Notes: generated by a model not told the origin, from the letters alone. A stretch of 63,980 nucleotides of DNA, filler included, from Octopus bimaculoides (GCF_001194135.2; 4 parts of 4 records of this genome joined end to end with filler, not necessarily neighbours in it); one strand, 5' to 3'. Positions 2,567 through 59,260 are shown, counted from the whole stretch's first letter. Translations and numbers: made by a program.

Positions 2567-2610
2567 ACACAACGTTTCGGCTGATATACCCTCCAGCCGT
2601 CATCAGGTGT
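2567..2610 (-). ncRNA. Minimal type I hammerhead ribozyme motif, intact core (PLE terminal-repeat type)
   Basis: Minus strand reads ACAC-CUGAUGA-C-GGCUG(gagggUaUaU)CAGCC-GAAAC-GUU^GUGU. Helix I is 4 bp, helix II 5 bp, and helix III is the loopless palindrome ACGU. Confidence 0.85.
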
Positions 2611-2694
2611 CTTGGAGAAATTTGGAACTTGGGTTCTCATTCCTAAGGTATTTTTCGATGTTATTATCATTATTATTATTATTATTATTATTCA

Positions 2695-2760
2695 CTGTCT
2701 GGAATCGAACTCGGAATCTTAAAGTTAGTAGCCCGCGCTCTTAACCACTACGCCATATGT
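2695..2760 (-). mobile_element. tRNA-like SINE head (not a functional tRNA)
   Basis: TGGCGTAGTGGTTAAG..GAGTTCGATTCC boxes, but no intact acceptor stem; followed by an (AAT)n tail. Confidence 0.6.
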
Positions 2761-4112
2761 AGCATGCTATAGTAGAAGACACTTGCCCAAGGTGCCACGT
2801 AGTAGGACTGAACCCGGAATGTTGTTGCGAAGAAAGCTTCTTACCGCACAGCCACGTCCATATACACACACACACATCCACAAAGCCTCGTTCTCACAGG
2901 CACGCACAAGTACTTTACGCTAAAGAGGACACATGTATACACATACAGACAGACAATACACTCATATAAACAAAAAGAGCCACAACTATTCACACACACA
3001 CACGCACGCNNNNNNNNNNNNNNNNNNNNNNNNNNNNNNNNNNNNNNNNNNNNNNNNNNNNNNNNNNNNNNNNNNNNNNNNNNNNNNNNNNNNNNNNNNN
3101 NNNNNNNNNNNNNNNNNNNNNNNNNNNNNNNNNNNNNNNNNNNNNNNNNNNNNNNNNNNNNNNNNNNNNNNNNNNNNNNNNNNNNNNNNNNNNNNNNNNN
3201 NNNNNNNNNNNNNNNNNNNNNNNNNNNNNNNNNNNNNNNNNNNNNNNNNNNNNNNNNNNNNNNNNNNNNNNNNNNNNNNNNNNNNNNNNNNNNNNNNNNN
3301 NNNNNNNNNNNNNNNNNNNNNNNNNNNNNNNNNNNNNNNNNNNNNNNNNNNNNNNNNNNNNNNNNNNNNNNNNNNNNNNNNNNNNNNNNNNNNNNNNNNN
3401 NNNNNNNNNNNNNNNNNNNNNNNNNNNNNNNNNNNNNNNNNNNNNNNNNNNNNNNNNNNNNNNNNNNNNNNNNNNNNNNNNNNNNNNNNNNNNNNNNNNN
3501 NNNNNNNNNNNNNNNNNNNNNNNNNNNNNNNNNNNNNNNNNNNNNNNNNNNNNNNNNNNNNNNNNNNNNNNNNNNNNNNNNNNNNNNNNNNNNNNNNNNN
3601 NNNNNNNNNNNNNNNNNNNNNNNNNNNNNNNNNNNNNNNNNNNNNNNNNNNNNNNNNNNNNNNNNNNNNNNNNNNNNNNNNNNNNNNNNNNNNNNNNNNN
3701 NNNNNNNNNNNNNNNNNNNNNNNNATATATATATATATATATACATACACATATGCACAGACGCGCACTGACGAACACATACACACACACACATCCACAA
3801 AGCCTCGTTCTCACAGGCACGCACAAGTACTTTACGCTAAAGAGGACACATGTATACACATACAGACAGACAATACACTCATATAAACAAAAAGAGCCAC
3901 AACTATTCACACACACACACGCACGCACACACACATACACAAAGATGTAAAAGCATGCACACACATCGACAGATACGTATACACACACACATTTACACCC
4001 AACTATGTACCCCCTTTTGTTATTTACTGAACGGGTGTCATCCTGACAGCAATTTACAGATGAAGAAGAGAAAATATAGAAATGAGGAGGGGGTGAAGAG
4101 TGAGGTGGGAAG

Positions 4113-4148
<36 letters not shown>

Positions 4149-4736
4149 TACTTTATATATTTATCTATGGAAACAATTACATGATTGTGTGTGTCTATGA
4201 GCGAATGTCTCCCTCTGTGCATGTGTGTGTTTGTGTATGTGTGTGTGTGAGTGTGTGTGTAGAGGGGTTGCTATGTGTTGCATACATACATACATACATA
4301 CATACATGCATACATACATACATACATACATACATACCTACATACACCATATAATATATACACACATATGTCCATGTATTCATATATGTATATATATATT
4401 ATGTTAATGTGTGTGTGTGTGCGTACACTCATCCACACACAGACACACACACATATGTCTGTGTATGCATATGTGTATGCGTGTGTGTGTATGTGTGTGT
4501 GCGTAATAGTGTTAGATGTCAGGTATGCATTATAATTGGCGAATAGCTCTATGTAATTTACTTAAAACCTGGAATTCATATGAAATATTTCTGTAAATAA
4601 TTAACGAGCGTAATGAACCACTAATGATATCTCAACATAGGATTAAAACTCACCTACGAAGATATTATATACCGTCAAGCTGTTTATATCTGCTTATTAC
4701 ATATAATGTTGGCTAAAATCTATAGATATATTCTGG

Positions 4737-4900
4737 GAGAATATACAAATAATAACAACAGACGAGGACAGGTGGTGTAAATAACAAAAGTATATATTAG
4801 TATGACGCTCGGGAATACGGAAAGTCTTTGACGTTTCGAGCTACGCTCTTCAACAGAAAGAATACGGAGACAAGGAGAAAAACACGGAGAAAAAAAATTG
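4737..4900 (-). mobile_element. Second copy of the HHR-bearing terminal repeat family
   Basis: Direct alignment by eye with 33297-33463. Confidence 0.7.
4825..4861 (-). ncRNA. Hammerhead-like motif with A6U core change, copy 1
   Basis: Minus strand reads UCUUU-CUGUUGA-A-GAGC(gua)GCUC-GAAAC-GUC^AAAGA. Confidence 0.65.
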
Positions 4901-5444
4901 GGAGAAAAAAAATTGATATATTCTCTTGTATATGACAACATAATTGTATATACTGGCCGAAGCGACTTCATGTTGGAAGCAGGGCCACGTTAGGTTTTTT
5001 TTAATATTTCATCTTATACATAGGTAGTGTGTATGATTATTTTTTTCTCAGGCCACTGAGACTAGTTGGGGAAGTTATCCTCAAAGCAGGTACTGGATTT
5101 GAATGCTTCCTGATGAGTGAACTGTGCTAAAGACATCCAAGGATGGCTTAAGAATCTATAGAGTCATACGACCATCCAACAGCTGGGAGTAAGCAGATAC
5201 TAGCCTTTGTTCAGACATCTCTCTTGGAGAAGGAAAACTTTGATGTAACACCTGCGGCTTCACTTGCATTCTATGATGTAGACTAGTTCATTTTTTGTTA
5301 GGCAAGTGCACATGTTTAAAAGGGTGTAGGACAAAACCCCACCAAGGACAAAACCCCTAGAAAAAAATACAGGAAAAACGTCCTGAGGACAAAAAAAAAG
5401 GCAATTTTTAAATCACAATTTATATTATCATTTGTATTTTATGA

Positions 5445-5625
5445 ACACTTTTCTAAGGCGTGAAACATTTGGGGGAGGGGCAGTCGATTAGTACTGGTGC
5501 TTAATTTATCGATCCCGAAAGGATGAAAAGCAAAGTCGACCTCGGCGGAATTTGAACTGAAAACGTAAAGACAGACGAAATACGGTAAGCATTTCGCCCG
5601 GCGTGCTAACGTTTCTGAGCCTGAC
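5445..5625 (-). mobile_element. SINE family B
   Basis: Reverse complement of the family-B body. Confidence 0.8.
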
Positions 5626-6050
5626 AATGACTTATGAGTAAATTTGGTAGACGGAAACTGTGTGGAAGCCTGTCATATGCGTGTATGTGTGCCTGTCACT
5701 CTCACTATTCTACAACCGGTGTTGGTTTGTTTACGCCACCTTGACGATAAAATAAGTACAAGGCTTAAAAACAAGAACTGCAGTGGGTTTAGACAGTGCC
5801 CCTGCATGGCTGCAGTCCAGTGACTGAAACAAGTAAAAGATAAAAGTTAGAAGATATCGTTTAGACTCAACAGTCATTAATCTGCTAATTTATAATCACT
5901 ATCCTTAATTAGATTAGCAGACAAGGGGCTTCCACATGCTAGAAATAGTTGTCAATCCATTTTTTTTTCAACCACACCCTATCGTTAAAAATAAAGTGAT
6001 GAAGGAAGAACGCTTTGGTCTATGTATATCGTAGATATACAAAAGGTGGA

Positions 6051-6442
6051 GTGGAGGCGCAATGGTCCAGTGGTTAGGGCAGTGGACTCGCGGTCCTAGG
6101 ATCCTAGGATCGCAGTTTCGATTGCCAGACCGGGCGTTGTGAGTGTTTATTGAGCGAAAACACCTAAAGCTCCACGAAGCTCCGGCAGAGGGGTTGTGGT
6201 GCGAACCCTGCTGTACTCTTCCACCACAACTTTCTCTCACTCTTTCTTCTTGTTTCCGTTGTACCAGTAATTCAAAGGGTCAGCCTTGTCACACTCTGTG
6301 TCACGCTGAAGATCCCCGAGAACTACGTTAAGGGTACACGTGTCTGTGGAGTGCTCAGCCACTTGCACGTTAGTTTCACATGCAAACTGTTCCGTTGATT
6401 GGAGCAGCTGGAACCCTCGTCGTCGTAACCGACGGAGTGCCA
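6051..6442 (+). mobile_element. tRNA-derived SINE, family A, near full length
   Basis: A box TGGTCCAGTGG and B box GTTTCGATTGCC. The body is shared with 42625-42978, 519-780 and 35265-35380. Confidence 0.85.
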
Positions 6443-57771: not shown

Positions 57772-57811
<40 letters not shown>

Positions 57812-57845
57812 GGAGAGAGAGAGAGAGATAAGGAGAGAGAGAGTA

Positions 57846-57878
<33 letters not shown>

Positions 57879-58009
57879 TAGATAGATAGATAGATAGATA
57901 GACATATATGTATTTATGGAGAGATGGATTTTATATGTATATGCACATACACACACACACATATGTAAAACAACTTAATTCCTGTATTCACATATATGAA
58001 ATACAGACA

Positions 58010-58063
<54 letters not shown>

Positions 58064-58414
58064 TGTTTACTGTGTACGCTCACACCTATTCATACATCGT
58101 GTGGTAAGCAGACTCCTATTCACATCCCCAGCATCTGTAAATCCATCGACTTCGGTAACTCTAAAAAACAAAAAACAACATTCTGAACCGAAAGCCGTCA
58201 GAACACTCGTCCGTAATATAGTGTCTCTGCTGCTTACATCTATGAACTTTTCCCCGCTCCGCTCTCTCTCTCTCTCACTCATTTTCTCCTTCTCTCATTG
58301 TTTCTCTTTCTCTGTCATACACACATACTCACACATACACACACTCATACACTCTTCTTCGCTCTCTTCTACTTCTCTTTTTCTTTCTCCCCTTCCTCTC
58401 TCTCCCTCTCTTCC

Positions 58415-58445
<31 letters not shown>

Positions 58446-58572
58446 TCTATCGCACACTCATTCACGCCTACACGCTTCCTCACTCTCCTTCTCCAGTTGT
58501 TTCTGTCTTTCTCACCTGCCTCTCTCTCCCTCTTTTCCTTCTCTGTCCCTCTCTCTCCCTCTCACTGCCTCT

Positions 58573-58603
<31 letters not shown>

Positions 58604-58734
58604 TCTCTCCATCACACACACACGCCTACATACGTGACTAAGTACGTGATTTATATTTTAAATAGAATAAACCTAAAAATAAACCATAGCTGGCCTCTGT
58701 GACACAGGCATATTTATGTGCTCTATAAATTAAT

Positions 58735-59260
58735 TAGAACTAGTAATCGCATATTTATACTCAGATCATCTGGACAGATTCAAACGCAAAATATGCTAAT
58801 CGTTGTAGTGACCGTCACAGAAGAATAACTCTCTTTTGCGACGACAGTATGCTCAACACACTTGGTTCGTTGGAACACGGCATTCTGGGACACCTGTGTT
58901 TCGATATGCTGTGTCCCGTCAGCCAGAAACACCCGGATCTTTGAGCCTAAACCAAGCCGCTGGCTGTTCTTATACTTTTAGCGAACAAACTGTTTGCTAA
59001 TCACTGCTTATGTCTGCCAACCAATAGAAAAAAATTGTATTTGCAGCACGTACAACGAGATCTAGAACGATTATTCGCATATTTATTCTTAATACGTTTA
59101 GGCAGGTTCAGACGCAAAATATGCCGGTCGCTGTGGTGTACGTCTTAGGAGAATAACTTCTTTCTTTTACGATGATATTGTGTTCAACACACACGGCTGT
59201 ACTCGGTACAAATAACGATCTTAGATGACTGTTATATTTGGGGGATGGTCAGTTTTTGCC
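58735..59260 (-). repeat. Diverged tandem repeat, about 1.6 units of ~329 bp, carrying a hammerhead motif (retrozyme-like)
   Basis: TAGAAC..TCGCATATTTAT..ACGCAAAATATGC..AGAATAACT..TCAACACAC recurs at 58735 and 59063. The GTCAG of the HHR core recurs at 58918 and 59248. Confidence 0.75.
58883..58928 (-). ncRNA. Type I hammerhead ribozyme motif (A9G) inside a ~329-bp tandem repeat
   Basis: Minus strand reads UUCUGG-CUGACGG-GAcA(cagca)UaUC-GAA-ACAC(ag)GUGU-C^CCAGAA. Helix I is a perfect 6 bp and the triplet is GUC. Confidence 0.75.

Follow-up and report, generated by a model that had tools for sequence, protein, structure and literature searches.

Hammerhead-bearing elements in animals

It is established that animal genomes carry scattered single hammerheads of many families, left by Penelope-like elements in truncated form. 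Thousands of such motifs per animal genome, in many families, are reported; most are single elements derived from truncated copies, and cleavage of a single motif was not detectable (PMC4209133). According to the published model, two hammerheads in a tandem transcript of the parent element would pair via their palindromic helix III, and the paired hammerheads would release the RNA of the element from its precursor by cleavage. The Penelope minimal hammerhead is of type I and comprises a short helix I, an unpaired nucleotide after A9, a G10.1-C11.1 pair and a four-letter palindromic helix III; it occurs in many families, mostly as solo copies (Cervera and de la Pena, 2014, PMC4209133). No cephalopod is present among the representatives examined from Fig. 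S3 of that study. Elements of the Hydra clade carry a C-terminal endonuclease with CxCX5C and CxH motifs and a sense 3' hammerhead with U opposite U, a short near-palindromic helix III and A17. A Hydra-1_Obim hammerhead from Octopus bimaculoides is listed (Craig et al., 2021, PMC8557442). That publication was the sole relevant match for a cephalopod hammerhead census, of which there seems to be none in the literature.

Non-LTR retrozymes form a further class (Cervera and de la Pena, 2020, PMC7229834; bioRxiv 10.64898/2026.07.22.740005). Penelope hammerheads and retrozymes may together form a single continuum (bioRxiv 10.64898/2026.07.22.740005). A natural hammerhead variant, from phage Bcep176, has A6C in its core. 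Its activity is lowered with Mg2+ and kept with Mn2+ (PMC3088659, PMC7151607).

Hammerhead motifs in the Octopus bimaculoides window

The window, the whole stretch of 63,980 nucleotides (filler included) that was analysed, contains nine hammerhead-like motifs at 2567 (-), 4825 (-), 10590 (+), 13077 (-), 23447 (-), 27094 (+), 33335 (+), 54879 (-) and 58883 (-). The sequence-only reading had placed nine motifs at these positions, and all nine sites are present. Its claim that each folds as helix I, CUGANGA, helix II, GAAA, helix III, NUH and helix I was too strong. A strict type I descriptor (intact core, helix I of at least 4 bp, helices II and III of at least 2 bp) is passed by two of the nine, 2566-2611 and 23447-23491. 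The core letters C3 U4 G5 A6 N7 G8 A9, G12 A13 A14 A15.1, U16.1 and H17 are complete in 2567, 23447, 27094 and 54879, and in 13077 as letters only. They are incomplete in 4825 and 33335 (A6U), 58883 (A9G) and 10590 (C3U, no G12). Three helices close directly on the core, with the ends in helix I, in 2567, 4825, 33335, 23447 and 58883; they do so in 27094 as well, where helix II starts from a U-U, and do not in 54879 and 13077. Among the helices III proposed as palindromic or near-palindromic, ACGU, ACCCGGGU and ACUUCGAAGU are perfect palindromes, while ACACAGGUGU is imperfect. The proposed lack of relation between helices outside the 4825/33335 pair agrees with self-blastn, in which no other motif pair shared flanks.

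Most of the nine are genuine hammerhead look-alikes, with a textbook-intact core in two only. The hammerhead family is absent among the 150 of 286 matches listed by an Rfam scan of the whole window, which are only microsatellite-driven matches of miRNA type. Local Rfam scans of 23447 and 58883 gave no hammerhead match. The majority of the single motifs fold no better than shuffled sequence. Taken together, the motifs show no proximity to (TA)n tracts, with distances of 130 to 3277 against a random median of 737. A match with two mismatches (6301-6349) falls within a dispersed SINE-like repeat and was left uncounted.

For the strict descriptor, the null mean was 0.045 and none of 200 local dinucleotide shuffles reached two matches; a tighter version was reached in 0/300 4-mer and 0/300 6-mer shuffles. 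Allowing one core mismatch together with a palindromic helix III raised the count to five of the nine by adding 4825 and 33335 (CUGUUGA) and 58883 (CUGACGG), at a null mean of 0.25-0.28 and with no shuffle reaching five. The excess was smaller when a 3-bp helix I and one mismatch were accepted (10 matches against a null mean of 3.9, 1/200 shuffles). With two mismatches allowed, five were observed (6/200 shuffles). Descriptors for the other four motifs were tailored afterwards, and the probabilities of at least one match per shuffled window are post hoc: 0.006-0.013 for the 27094 type, 0-0.017 for the 54879 type, 0.18-0.21 for the 10590 type and 0.98-1.0 for the 13077 type. The sequence-only reading had proposed a comparison of three-helix matches with a dinucleotide-shuffled control. 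Run within the window, these comparisons with shuffles place seven of the nine motifs above chance, 10590 within chance and 13077 indistinguishable from it. The local density amounts to 37 per Mb for strict matches (95% interval 4-132); allowing one mismatch raises it to 92 per Mb (30-214).

Probable Penelope-type motifs and Penelope remnants

The minimal type I hammerhead at 2566..2611 (-) has an intact core. It comprises a helix I of 5 bp, CUGAUGA, an unpaired C, a helix II of 5-6 bp, GAA, an ACGU palindrome and U17, and a cut is predicted after 2571. This solo copy (fold z -1.4) agrees with the minimal-hammerhead consensus in Fig. S3 of PMC4209133. The unpaired nucleotide after A9, the G10.1-C11.1 pair and the palindromic minimal helix III of Penelope hammerheads are shared by 2567, 4825 and 33335.

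The hammerhead-like sequence at 10590..10634 (+), with C3U, no G12 and helices I and II of 4 bp each, resembles remains of the minimal form; it would be a decayed copy or a chance match and is predicted to be inactive. In 54879..54925 (-), CUGACGA and GAAA are intact and followed by a perfect 10-nt palindrome and C17; helix I has only 2 bp, helix II is broken and the fold z is +0.8. It is probably a decayed real copy. The bare CUGAGGA...GAAA at 13077..13136 (-) has none of the helices I, II and III next to the core and is at chance level.

A 5'-truncated ORF remnant at 25837..26694 (+) ends in an endonuclease of Hydra-clade type, with CxCX5C at residue 147, YxGxT at 181 and CxH at 273. The CxCX5C linker before the C-terminal endonuclease reads CGCRDRNKC (residue 147 of the ORF product, P0001). 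Its Atlas neighbours, at 0.94-0.95, are clusters from molluscs and cnidarians, and one of them is named GIY-YIG. The ORF gave no match in Pfam, and longer homologues of the endonuclease were sought without success. In the same sense, 403 nt past the ORF stop, begins the core of a Hydra-clade-type hammerhead at 27094..27145 (+), consisting of a helix I of 4 bp, CUGAAGAU, a long helix II, UGAA, an imperfect helix III and A17. Where helix II begins, U faces U, and this U...U layout recurs in 14 of the 26 Hydra rows of File S2 of PMC8557442. The 25837-27145 remnant differs from Hydra-clade elements by its truncation, one in-frame TAG and a CxxC that is not intact. The RT core, which carries DKT and RWK in this clade, lies outside the remnant. 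It also represents another family than Hydra-1_Obim: four short window strings are unmatched in the supplement, and the protein differs by eye.

The position 3' of a Penelope ORF in sense is found for 27094 only; tblastn with P0001-P0005 and two locus ORFs detected no ORF remnant beside the other eight motifs. A frameshifted Penelope-type reverse transcriptase remnant at 24151..25005 (+), covering RT4 to thumb and linker, has no attached hammerhead. It is about 50% identical to P0003 and P0004, the latter carrying RVT_1 and GIY-YIG. A short RT-like fragment at 32018..32248 (+), recognised by eye only, contains DKT, which is how the DKG motif reads in the Hydra clade, and has no match in Pfam.

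A two-copy family with U at core position 6

The motifs at 4825..4861 (-) and 33335..33371 (+) are two copies of a minimal hammerhead with the A6U core CUGUUGA, U6 being located at 4853 and 33343. The first has a helix I of 5 bp, a helix II of 4 bp, the ACGU palindrome and C17, the second U17. Self-blastn places them in repeat stubs of about 170 nt at 4732..4900 (-) and 33296..33465 (+), which are 93.8% identical over 145 nt and lie on opposite strands 28 kb apart. By analogy, the stub at 4732..4900 is likely the 3' end of a Penelope-like element, a pseudo-LTR piece.

No U6 core was found in the literature, including PMC11014351 and the supplement text of PMC8557442, figures not being searchable. 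None occurs among the representative cores examined from Fig. S3 of PMC4209133. Position-6 variants may be listed in a paper about Penelope hammerheads that act as dimers (Lunse et al., 2017, cited in PMC6765202). The closest natural change, in phage Bcep176, is A6C rather than A6U, and the family described here is that of an animal mobile element. Exact-pattern scans for the 4825-type core were negative in viral contigs (U6 fixed) and in prokaryote genomes.

A metagenome scan with the 4825 core as pattern and position 6 free found 17 loci. Thirteen of them have the architecture of 4825 and end in the ACGU palindrome, with A6 in 12, C6 in one and U6 in none. The remaining L007, L010, L012 and L017 have no palindrome, lie inside prokaryote-like ORFs and were set aside as chance matches. 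L004 is nearly identical to L009, and L005 and L006 are 93% alike. The motifs of L006 and L013 are located 673 and 187 nt behind ORFs that resemble Penelope endonucleases by eye, in the same sense; the L013 ORF was not recognised by Pfam. An alignment (A1) was made without L006 and L009 and with a second copy from L011. Across its 12 sequences, helix I and II pairs covary, with 10 cells changed on both sides (0/500 shuffles). None of the 17 loci is similar to the window in blastn, so they are analogues rather than family members. A model built from these loci (R2), circular for 4825 and 33335, yielded an E of 0.11 for 2567, on rank 3, and for 54879. It gave no match for the other five motifs of the window.

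The U6 of both copies permits a predicted 4-bp pairing between the core halves, which favours a family that is ribozyme-dead and mobile. It is tentatively suggested, at odds somewhat below even, that the family spread with U for the conserved A6. It would then be a natural U6 hammerhead whose dimers still cut, possibly preferring other metal ions as A6C does, or a Penelope derivative that stayed mobile after ribozyme death.

Retrozyme-like candidates

The best motif, at 23447..23491 (-), combines the intact core CUGACGA with a helix I of 6 bp, an internal loop and further pairing, the 8-nt palindrome ACCCGGGU and C17. Helix II has 4 bp and a 6-nt loop, with A-U rather than G-C at its base. Its fold z is -3.5 (0/200 shuffles), and the predicted lowest-energy dimer is a double-hammerhead fold. 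The motif forms the tip of a long hairpin in a highly self-paired 297-nt unit at 23240..23536 (-), which is flanked on one side by a (TA)n tract and on the other by a short TA run bordering the assembly gap 23543-24017. The unit folds at -105.3 kcal/mol (z -6.0, 0/200 shuffles). It resembles non-LTR retrozymes (PMC7229834; bioRxiv 10.64898/2026.07.22.740005) in a length of about 300 nt, a GC content under 50%, self-pairing, canonical helix sizes and a monomer helix III of 2 bp plus tetraloop. It differs from them in the A-U at 10.1-11.1. In a search for a tandem array with one 23447-type hammerhead per 150-450 bp unit, one copy and no array was seen in the window; the adjoining 475-nt assembly gap could hide one. 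A retrozyme-like monomer is plausible for 23240..23536. A scan of viral contigs for the 23447 palindrome gave four loci with the three helices missing, which were read as chance.

The type I hammerhead at 58883..58928 (-) carries A9G, a helix I of 6 bp, a helix II with one mismatch, a near-palindromic helix III and C17, and its minimum-energy fold is not a hammerhead. It lies in a partial direct repeat at 58735..59192 (-), where 58735-58861 and 59063-59192 are 74% identical and about 330 nt apart. The 59063-59192 copy contains no recognisable hammerhead. A CUGACCA lying exactly 330 nt, or one period, upstream was considered as part of a second hammerhead and discarded, since its alignment does no better than shuffles (403 of 1000 as good). 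Self-pairing of 58889-59200 gave a z of -1.0. A retrozyme origin of 58883 is possible.

Origin of the motifs

With a probability of roughly 0.85, the motifs are ribozyme-bearing 3' ends of several unrelated Penelope-like families, mostly decaying single 5'-truncated insertions, plus one or two likely retrozyme-type monomers. Of the origin first proposed, Penelope derivatives and retrozymes, the Penelope part is borne out by 27094 behind its Hydra-type endonuclease, the consensus fit of 2567, 4825 and 33335, and the reverse transcriptase remnant; for the retrozyme part, 23447 is a plausible case and 58883 a possible one. The solo motifs have no attached ORF, and it is their architecture that suggests a Penelope origin. 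None of them has a partner of its own family on the same strand nearby, and most would be silent. Active non-LTR retrozymes, transcribed, self-cleaving and circularising, would account for most motifs in another reading, for which the retrozyme size of 23240-23536 (150-450 bp, PMC7229834), its folding far better than shuffles, the helix sizes and predicted dimer of 23447 and the repeat period around 58883 speak. Five motifs are of minimal or Hydra Penelope form, no two same-family hammerheads stand in tandem, and 58883 has A9G beside a repeat copy that lacks a hammerhead, which makes so wide a role for retrozymes rather unlikely. Chance matches in a repeat-rich genome explain 13077 and possibly 10590, and the Rfam result and the shuffle-like folding of most single motifs fit them. 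For the set as a whole, this explanation is refuted: none of 200-500 shuffles reached the strict and one-mismatch counts, the 27094 and 54879 types are rare in shuffles, and 27094 has both the right neighbour and the clade form.

A coding exon resembling UNC93 (44184..45605, -; PF05978, E 2.6e-17) ends at a GT donor (44183), and the sequence-only reading had suggested that the motifs may be co-transcribed in its intron. In that case they would cut or tune the pre-mRNA. Seven of them lie 3' of the exon, both strict motifs are in gene sense, and a crude motif search found no later UNC93-like exon within the window. The count of five in exon sense does not hold: four of the seven are in sense and three antisense (P = 1.0), two other minus-strand motifs being upstream of the exon. 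The sense copies belong to different families with different palindromes, save ACGU in 2567 and 4825, and 4825 has A6U. Marked 100-nt gaps with the TTAATTAATTAA linker at 22748, 34033 and 54632 were read as assembly joins of unknown length, and at least one separates the exon from each of the nine motifs. The exon's own block between two of them, 34133-54631, holds no motif in 18.6 kb of called sequence. Without strand bias and with an empty exon block, a function in this intron is highly improbable.

Significance

The sequence-only reading had inferred a large, diverse population missed by ORF-based annotation. This pattern, covering many Penelope and retrozyme families, has been in print since 2014, and the motifs of this window change little in the general picture. 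The local hammerhead density could be high if it is typical of the genome. The search for a cephalopod retrozyme circular RNA has a ready candidate in the 297-nt unit at 23240. According to PMC8557442, it is unclear whether transposition of Penelope elements requires their hammerheads. If U6 were shared by the whole family, its core would provide a natural experiment on this point, and a 4825/33335 family that is ribozyme-dead and mobile, if true, would directly test whether Penelope mobilisation requires hammerhead cleavage.

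Motif counts and chance expectation

All nine sites that the sequence-only reading claimed as hammerheads of several families (2567, 4825, 10590, 13077, 23447, 27094, 33335, 54879 and 58883, named by start coordinate) are present, but only two of them pass a strict type I descriptor, namely the minus-strand motifs 2566-2611 and 23447-23491. This descriptor required an intact core and helices I, II and III of at least 4, 2 and 2 bp, and both strands were counted. Of the window's letters, 54,615 are called bases and 9,365 are N, and microsatellites and short dispersed repeats are abundant throughout. 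In general appearance it resembles a short-read octopus assembly, and one ORF remnant has mollusc and cnidarian neighbours. Shuffles yielded a mean of 0.045 strict matches, and two were reached in 0/200. Allowing one core mismatch together with a palindromic helix III raised the count to five of the nine, adding 4825 and 33335 (CUGUUGA, A6U) and 58883 (CUGACGG, A9G); the null mean was 0.25, and five were reached in 0/200. Shuffles preserving 4-mers or 6-mers gave a similar outcome (0/300 each). The comparison with shuffled sequence proposed earlier, run within the window, bears out the strict and one-mismatch counts, which exceed all shuffles tried.

Descriptors for the other four motifs were made after viewing them, and the resulting figures flatter these four: matches occurred in 0.6-1.3% (27094 type), 0-1.7% (54879 type), 18-21% (10590 type) and 98-100% (13077 type) of shuffled windows. 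Motif 54879 is probably decayed. Motif 10590 lacks G12, the general base of the hammerhead. Its C3U with G8 is also present in a published Saccoglossus family (PMC4209133). Motif 13077 is unsupported as a hammerhead; its fold has a z of -2.2, but the shape is unrelated to a hammerhead. Only 23447 (z -3.5) combines a hammerhead-compatible fold with a clear advantage over shuffles. Local Rfam scans of 23447 and 58883, the two most canonical-looking motifs, returned no hammerhead, nor was one found among the 150 of 286 matches listed for the whole window.

Bare cores devoid of helices numbered 11, against null values of 3.8 to 6.0 (reached in 0/500, 3/300 and 9/300). This slight enrichment means that additional decayed copies may be present in the window. 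At 6771 (+), 14311 (-) and 30253 (+), a bare CUGANGA...GAAA core shows traces of helix II; these three, absent from the first list, may be such extra decayed hammerheads. An inverted repeat with perfect or near-perfect arms of about 17 bp (14345-14392) lies just upstream of the 14311 core on the minus strand.

Minimal hammerheads and the U6 core

Motifs 2567, 4825 and 33335 fit the published consensus of minimal hammerheads (PMC4209133). When metagenomes were scanned for the 4825 core with position 6 unconstrained, 17 loci matched. The ACGU palindrome terminates 13 of them, with A6 in twelve, C6 in one and U6 in none. Two of these loci, one of them L013, follow ORFs that resemble Penelope endonucleases by eye, at distances of 187 and 673 nt; Pfam gave no match for the L013 ORF. 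Helix I and the outer helix II pair covary in 12 aligned sequences. By blastn, none of these loci resembles the window, so they illustrate the kind and not the family. The hammerhead model R2, derived from such outside loci, ranked 4825 (E 9e-9) and 33335 (E 3e-8), for both of which the scores are circular, ahead of 2567 and 54879 (E 0.11 each). At L011:1410-1680 and L004:924-1720, both of them outside loci, minimal hammerheads stand in head-to-head pairs on the two strands, an inverted layout that has been described for Penelope insertions.

U6 is carried by both window copies of the repeat family, 4825 (-) and 33335 (+), versus 0/13 outside loci, and is absent from the representative cores examined in Fig. 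S3 of PMC4209133. A natural A6U hammerhead was not found in the literature searched, a set that lacks Lunse et al. 2017, the paper closest to the question. For the natural A6C variant, slow cleavage in Mg2+ and activity in Mn2+ have been described (PMC3088659, PMC7151607). The boldest reading is a possible U6 family; two copies are too few for a consensus.

A motif behind a Hydra-type Penelope remnant

An ORF remnant at 25837-26694, with a single in-frame stop (read as X), precedes motif 27094 and links it to a Penelope-like element; the hammerhead core starts 403 nt past the stop that ends the ORF, in sense. The C-terminal domain carries CxCX5C, YxGxT and CxH, the marks of the Hydra clade according to section 11 of PMC8557442, and the motif order follows, by eye, the Hydra-1_Obim endonuclease (PMC8557442 supplement). 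Pfam did not recognize the ORF. In the Atlas, its residues 140-215 fall beside mollusc and cnidarian clusters, one of them named GIY-YIG, with PF01541 in 12% of its members. One unnamed protein is 87% identical to the ORF product. The motif fails the strict descriptor because a U faces a U where helix II begins at the core. This U...U is common to 14/26 Hydra rows (PMC8557442 File S2), so it is a clade trait rather than decay. At 24151-25005 lies a separate Penelope reverse transcriptase remnant, which shares about 50% identity with proteins that carry RVT_1 and GIY-YIG.

Retrozyme-like motifs

A long hairpin carries motif 23447 at its tip, within a 297-nt unit (23240-23536, minus strand; fold z -6.0), which is flanked by a (TA)n tract on one side and by a TA run at a gap on the other. 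The unit looks like a retrozyme monomer; a tandem copy of it was not seen. For a pair of such motifs, the predicted fold is a double hammerhead formed via the 8-nt palindrome. Of the nine, 23447 is the motif most likely to cut. Motif 58883 has, besides A9G, a mismatch in helix II and lies within a partial direct repeat with a period of about 330 nt, the other copy of which contains no hammerhead. Motif 58883 may be either a retrozyme or a Hydra-type end.

The UNC93-like exon

A Pfam match (PF05978, E 2.6e-17) shows the UNC93-like exon to be real; it occupies 44184-45605 on the minus strand, and its donor is at 44183. At about 474 codons, this first coding exon is of unusual length, and its N-terminal part is rich in histidine ahead of the Pfam domain. 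Most motifs had been placed 3' of it, five in sense, with possible co-transcription in the intron. Seven motifs do lie on its 3' side, but four are in sense, not five, and three antisense (P = 1.0). Three identical 100-nt gap markers (22748-22847, 34033-34132 and 54632-54731), each 44 N, a TTAATTAATTAA linker and 44 N, are probably assembly joins with the length between blocks not given; order and spacing across them are not to be trusted. The exon is in the block between the last two markers, where none of the nine motifs occurs. A crude search of the window did not find exon 2. Co-transcription is thus neither shown nor favoured, and the intron claim is not sustained.

Other repeats

An R2/R4-like non-LTR remnant (21740-22265, +) consists of a zf-RVT match (E 4e-5, below the cut-off) followed by the start of an RPD-type endonuclease. 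A second R2/R4-like piece (56346-56590, +) resembles, by eye, the C-terminal end of such an ORF. A frameshifted Tc1/mariner-type transposase remnant is located at 61810-62245 (+; HTH_Tnp_Tc3_2, E 2.6e-8). Broken ORF pieces at 48570-49710 (-) resemble a DNA-transposon transposase; the longest piece had no Pfam match. A common SINE-like repeat occurs in two head-to-head copies (13290-13540, inverted repeat around 13373-13473); tandem copies of this family extend from there as far as 13856, and the family is seen again at 10726-11083 and 34796-35239. Members of a dispersed SINE-like family whose head resembles a tRNA are found at 6050-6442 (+), 42628-42979 (-), 633-779 and 35287-35377; ARAGORN did not call this head. 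A hammerhead look-alike with two mismatches inside a copy of this tRNA-headed family (6301-6349) was treated as chance. An exact 114-nt duplicate flanking an N gap (2877-2990 and 3794-3907) is probably an assembly overlap.

Comparison with other genomes and proposed origin

The observation of nine motifs is real, partly overcalled and of a kind already known. Minimal motifs number about 2,000 in Schistosoma, 4,000 in coelacanth and 9,000 in Xenopus, with several families each, and are mostly single (PMC4209133). More than 6,000 motifs in 16 families are reported for a coral, about 5,000 for a mussel and 126,247 for axolotl (PMC7229834). About 44% of the Xenopus copies are intronic, and retrozymes have been derived from Penelope ends (bioRxiv 10.64898/2026.07.22.740005). 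A Hydra element of Octopus bimaculoides already has a listed hammerhead (PMC8557442), and Octopus vulgaris harbors 31 recently active Penelope-like families (PMC13282606). The particular families of the window are probably undescribed. In the window, which was selected for this trait, the density is 37 per Mb (95% interval 4-132) by the strict descriptor; allowing one mismatch raises it to 92 per Mb (30-214). Axolotl, with about 4.5 per Mb (126,247 in 28.21 Gb), lies near the lower bound of the strict interval. Because of this bound and the choice of the window, an unusual density is possible only.

Penelope insertion copies the 3' end first. Short truncated copies therefore retain the hammerhead and lose the ORF, leading to solo motifs in many families, and the window motifs would be leftovers of such 3'-first truncated insertions. 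According to the published model, tandem Penelope copies carry hammerheads in their pseudo-LTRs, which pair with each other via the palindromic helix III and thereby excise the element RNA from its precursor. One minimal motif on its own showed no cleavage, and dimers cleaved at a low level only (PMC4209133, PMC6765202). Since most window copies have no partner and several have a damaged core or helix, they would be mostly silent.
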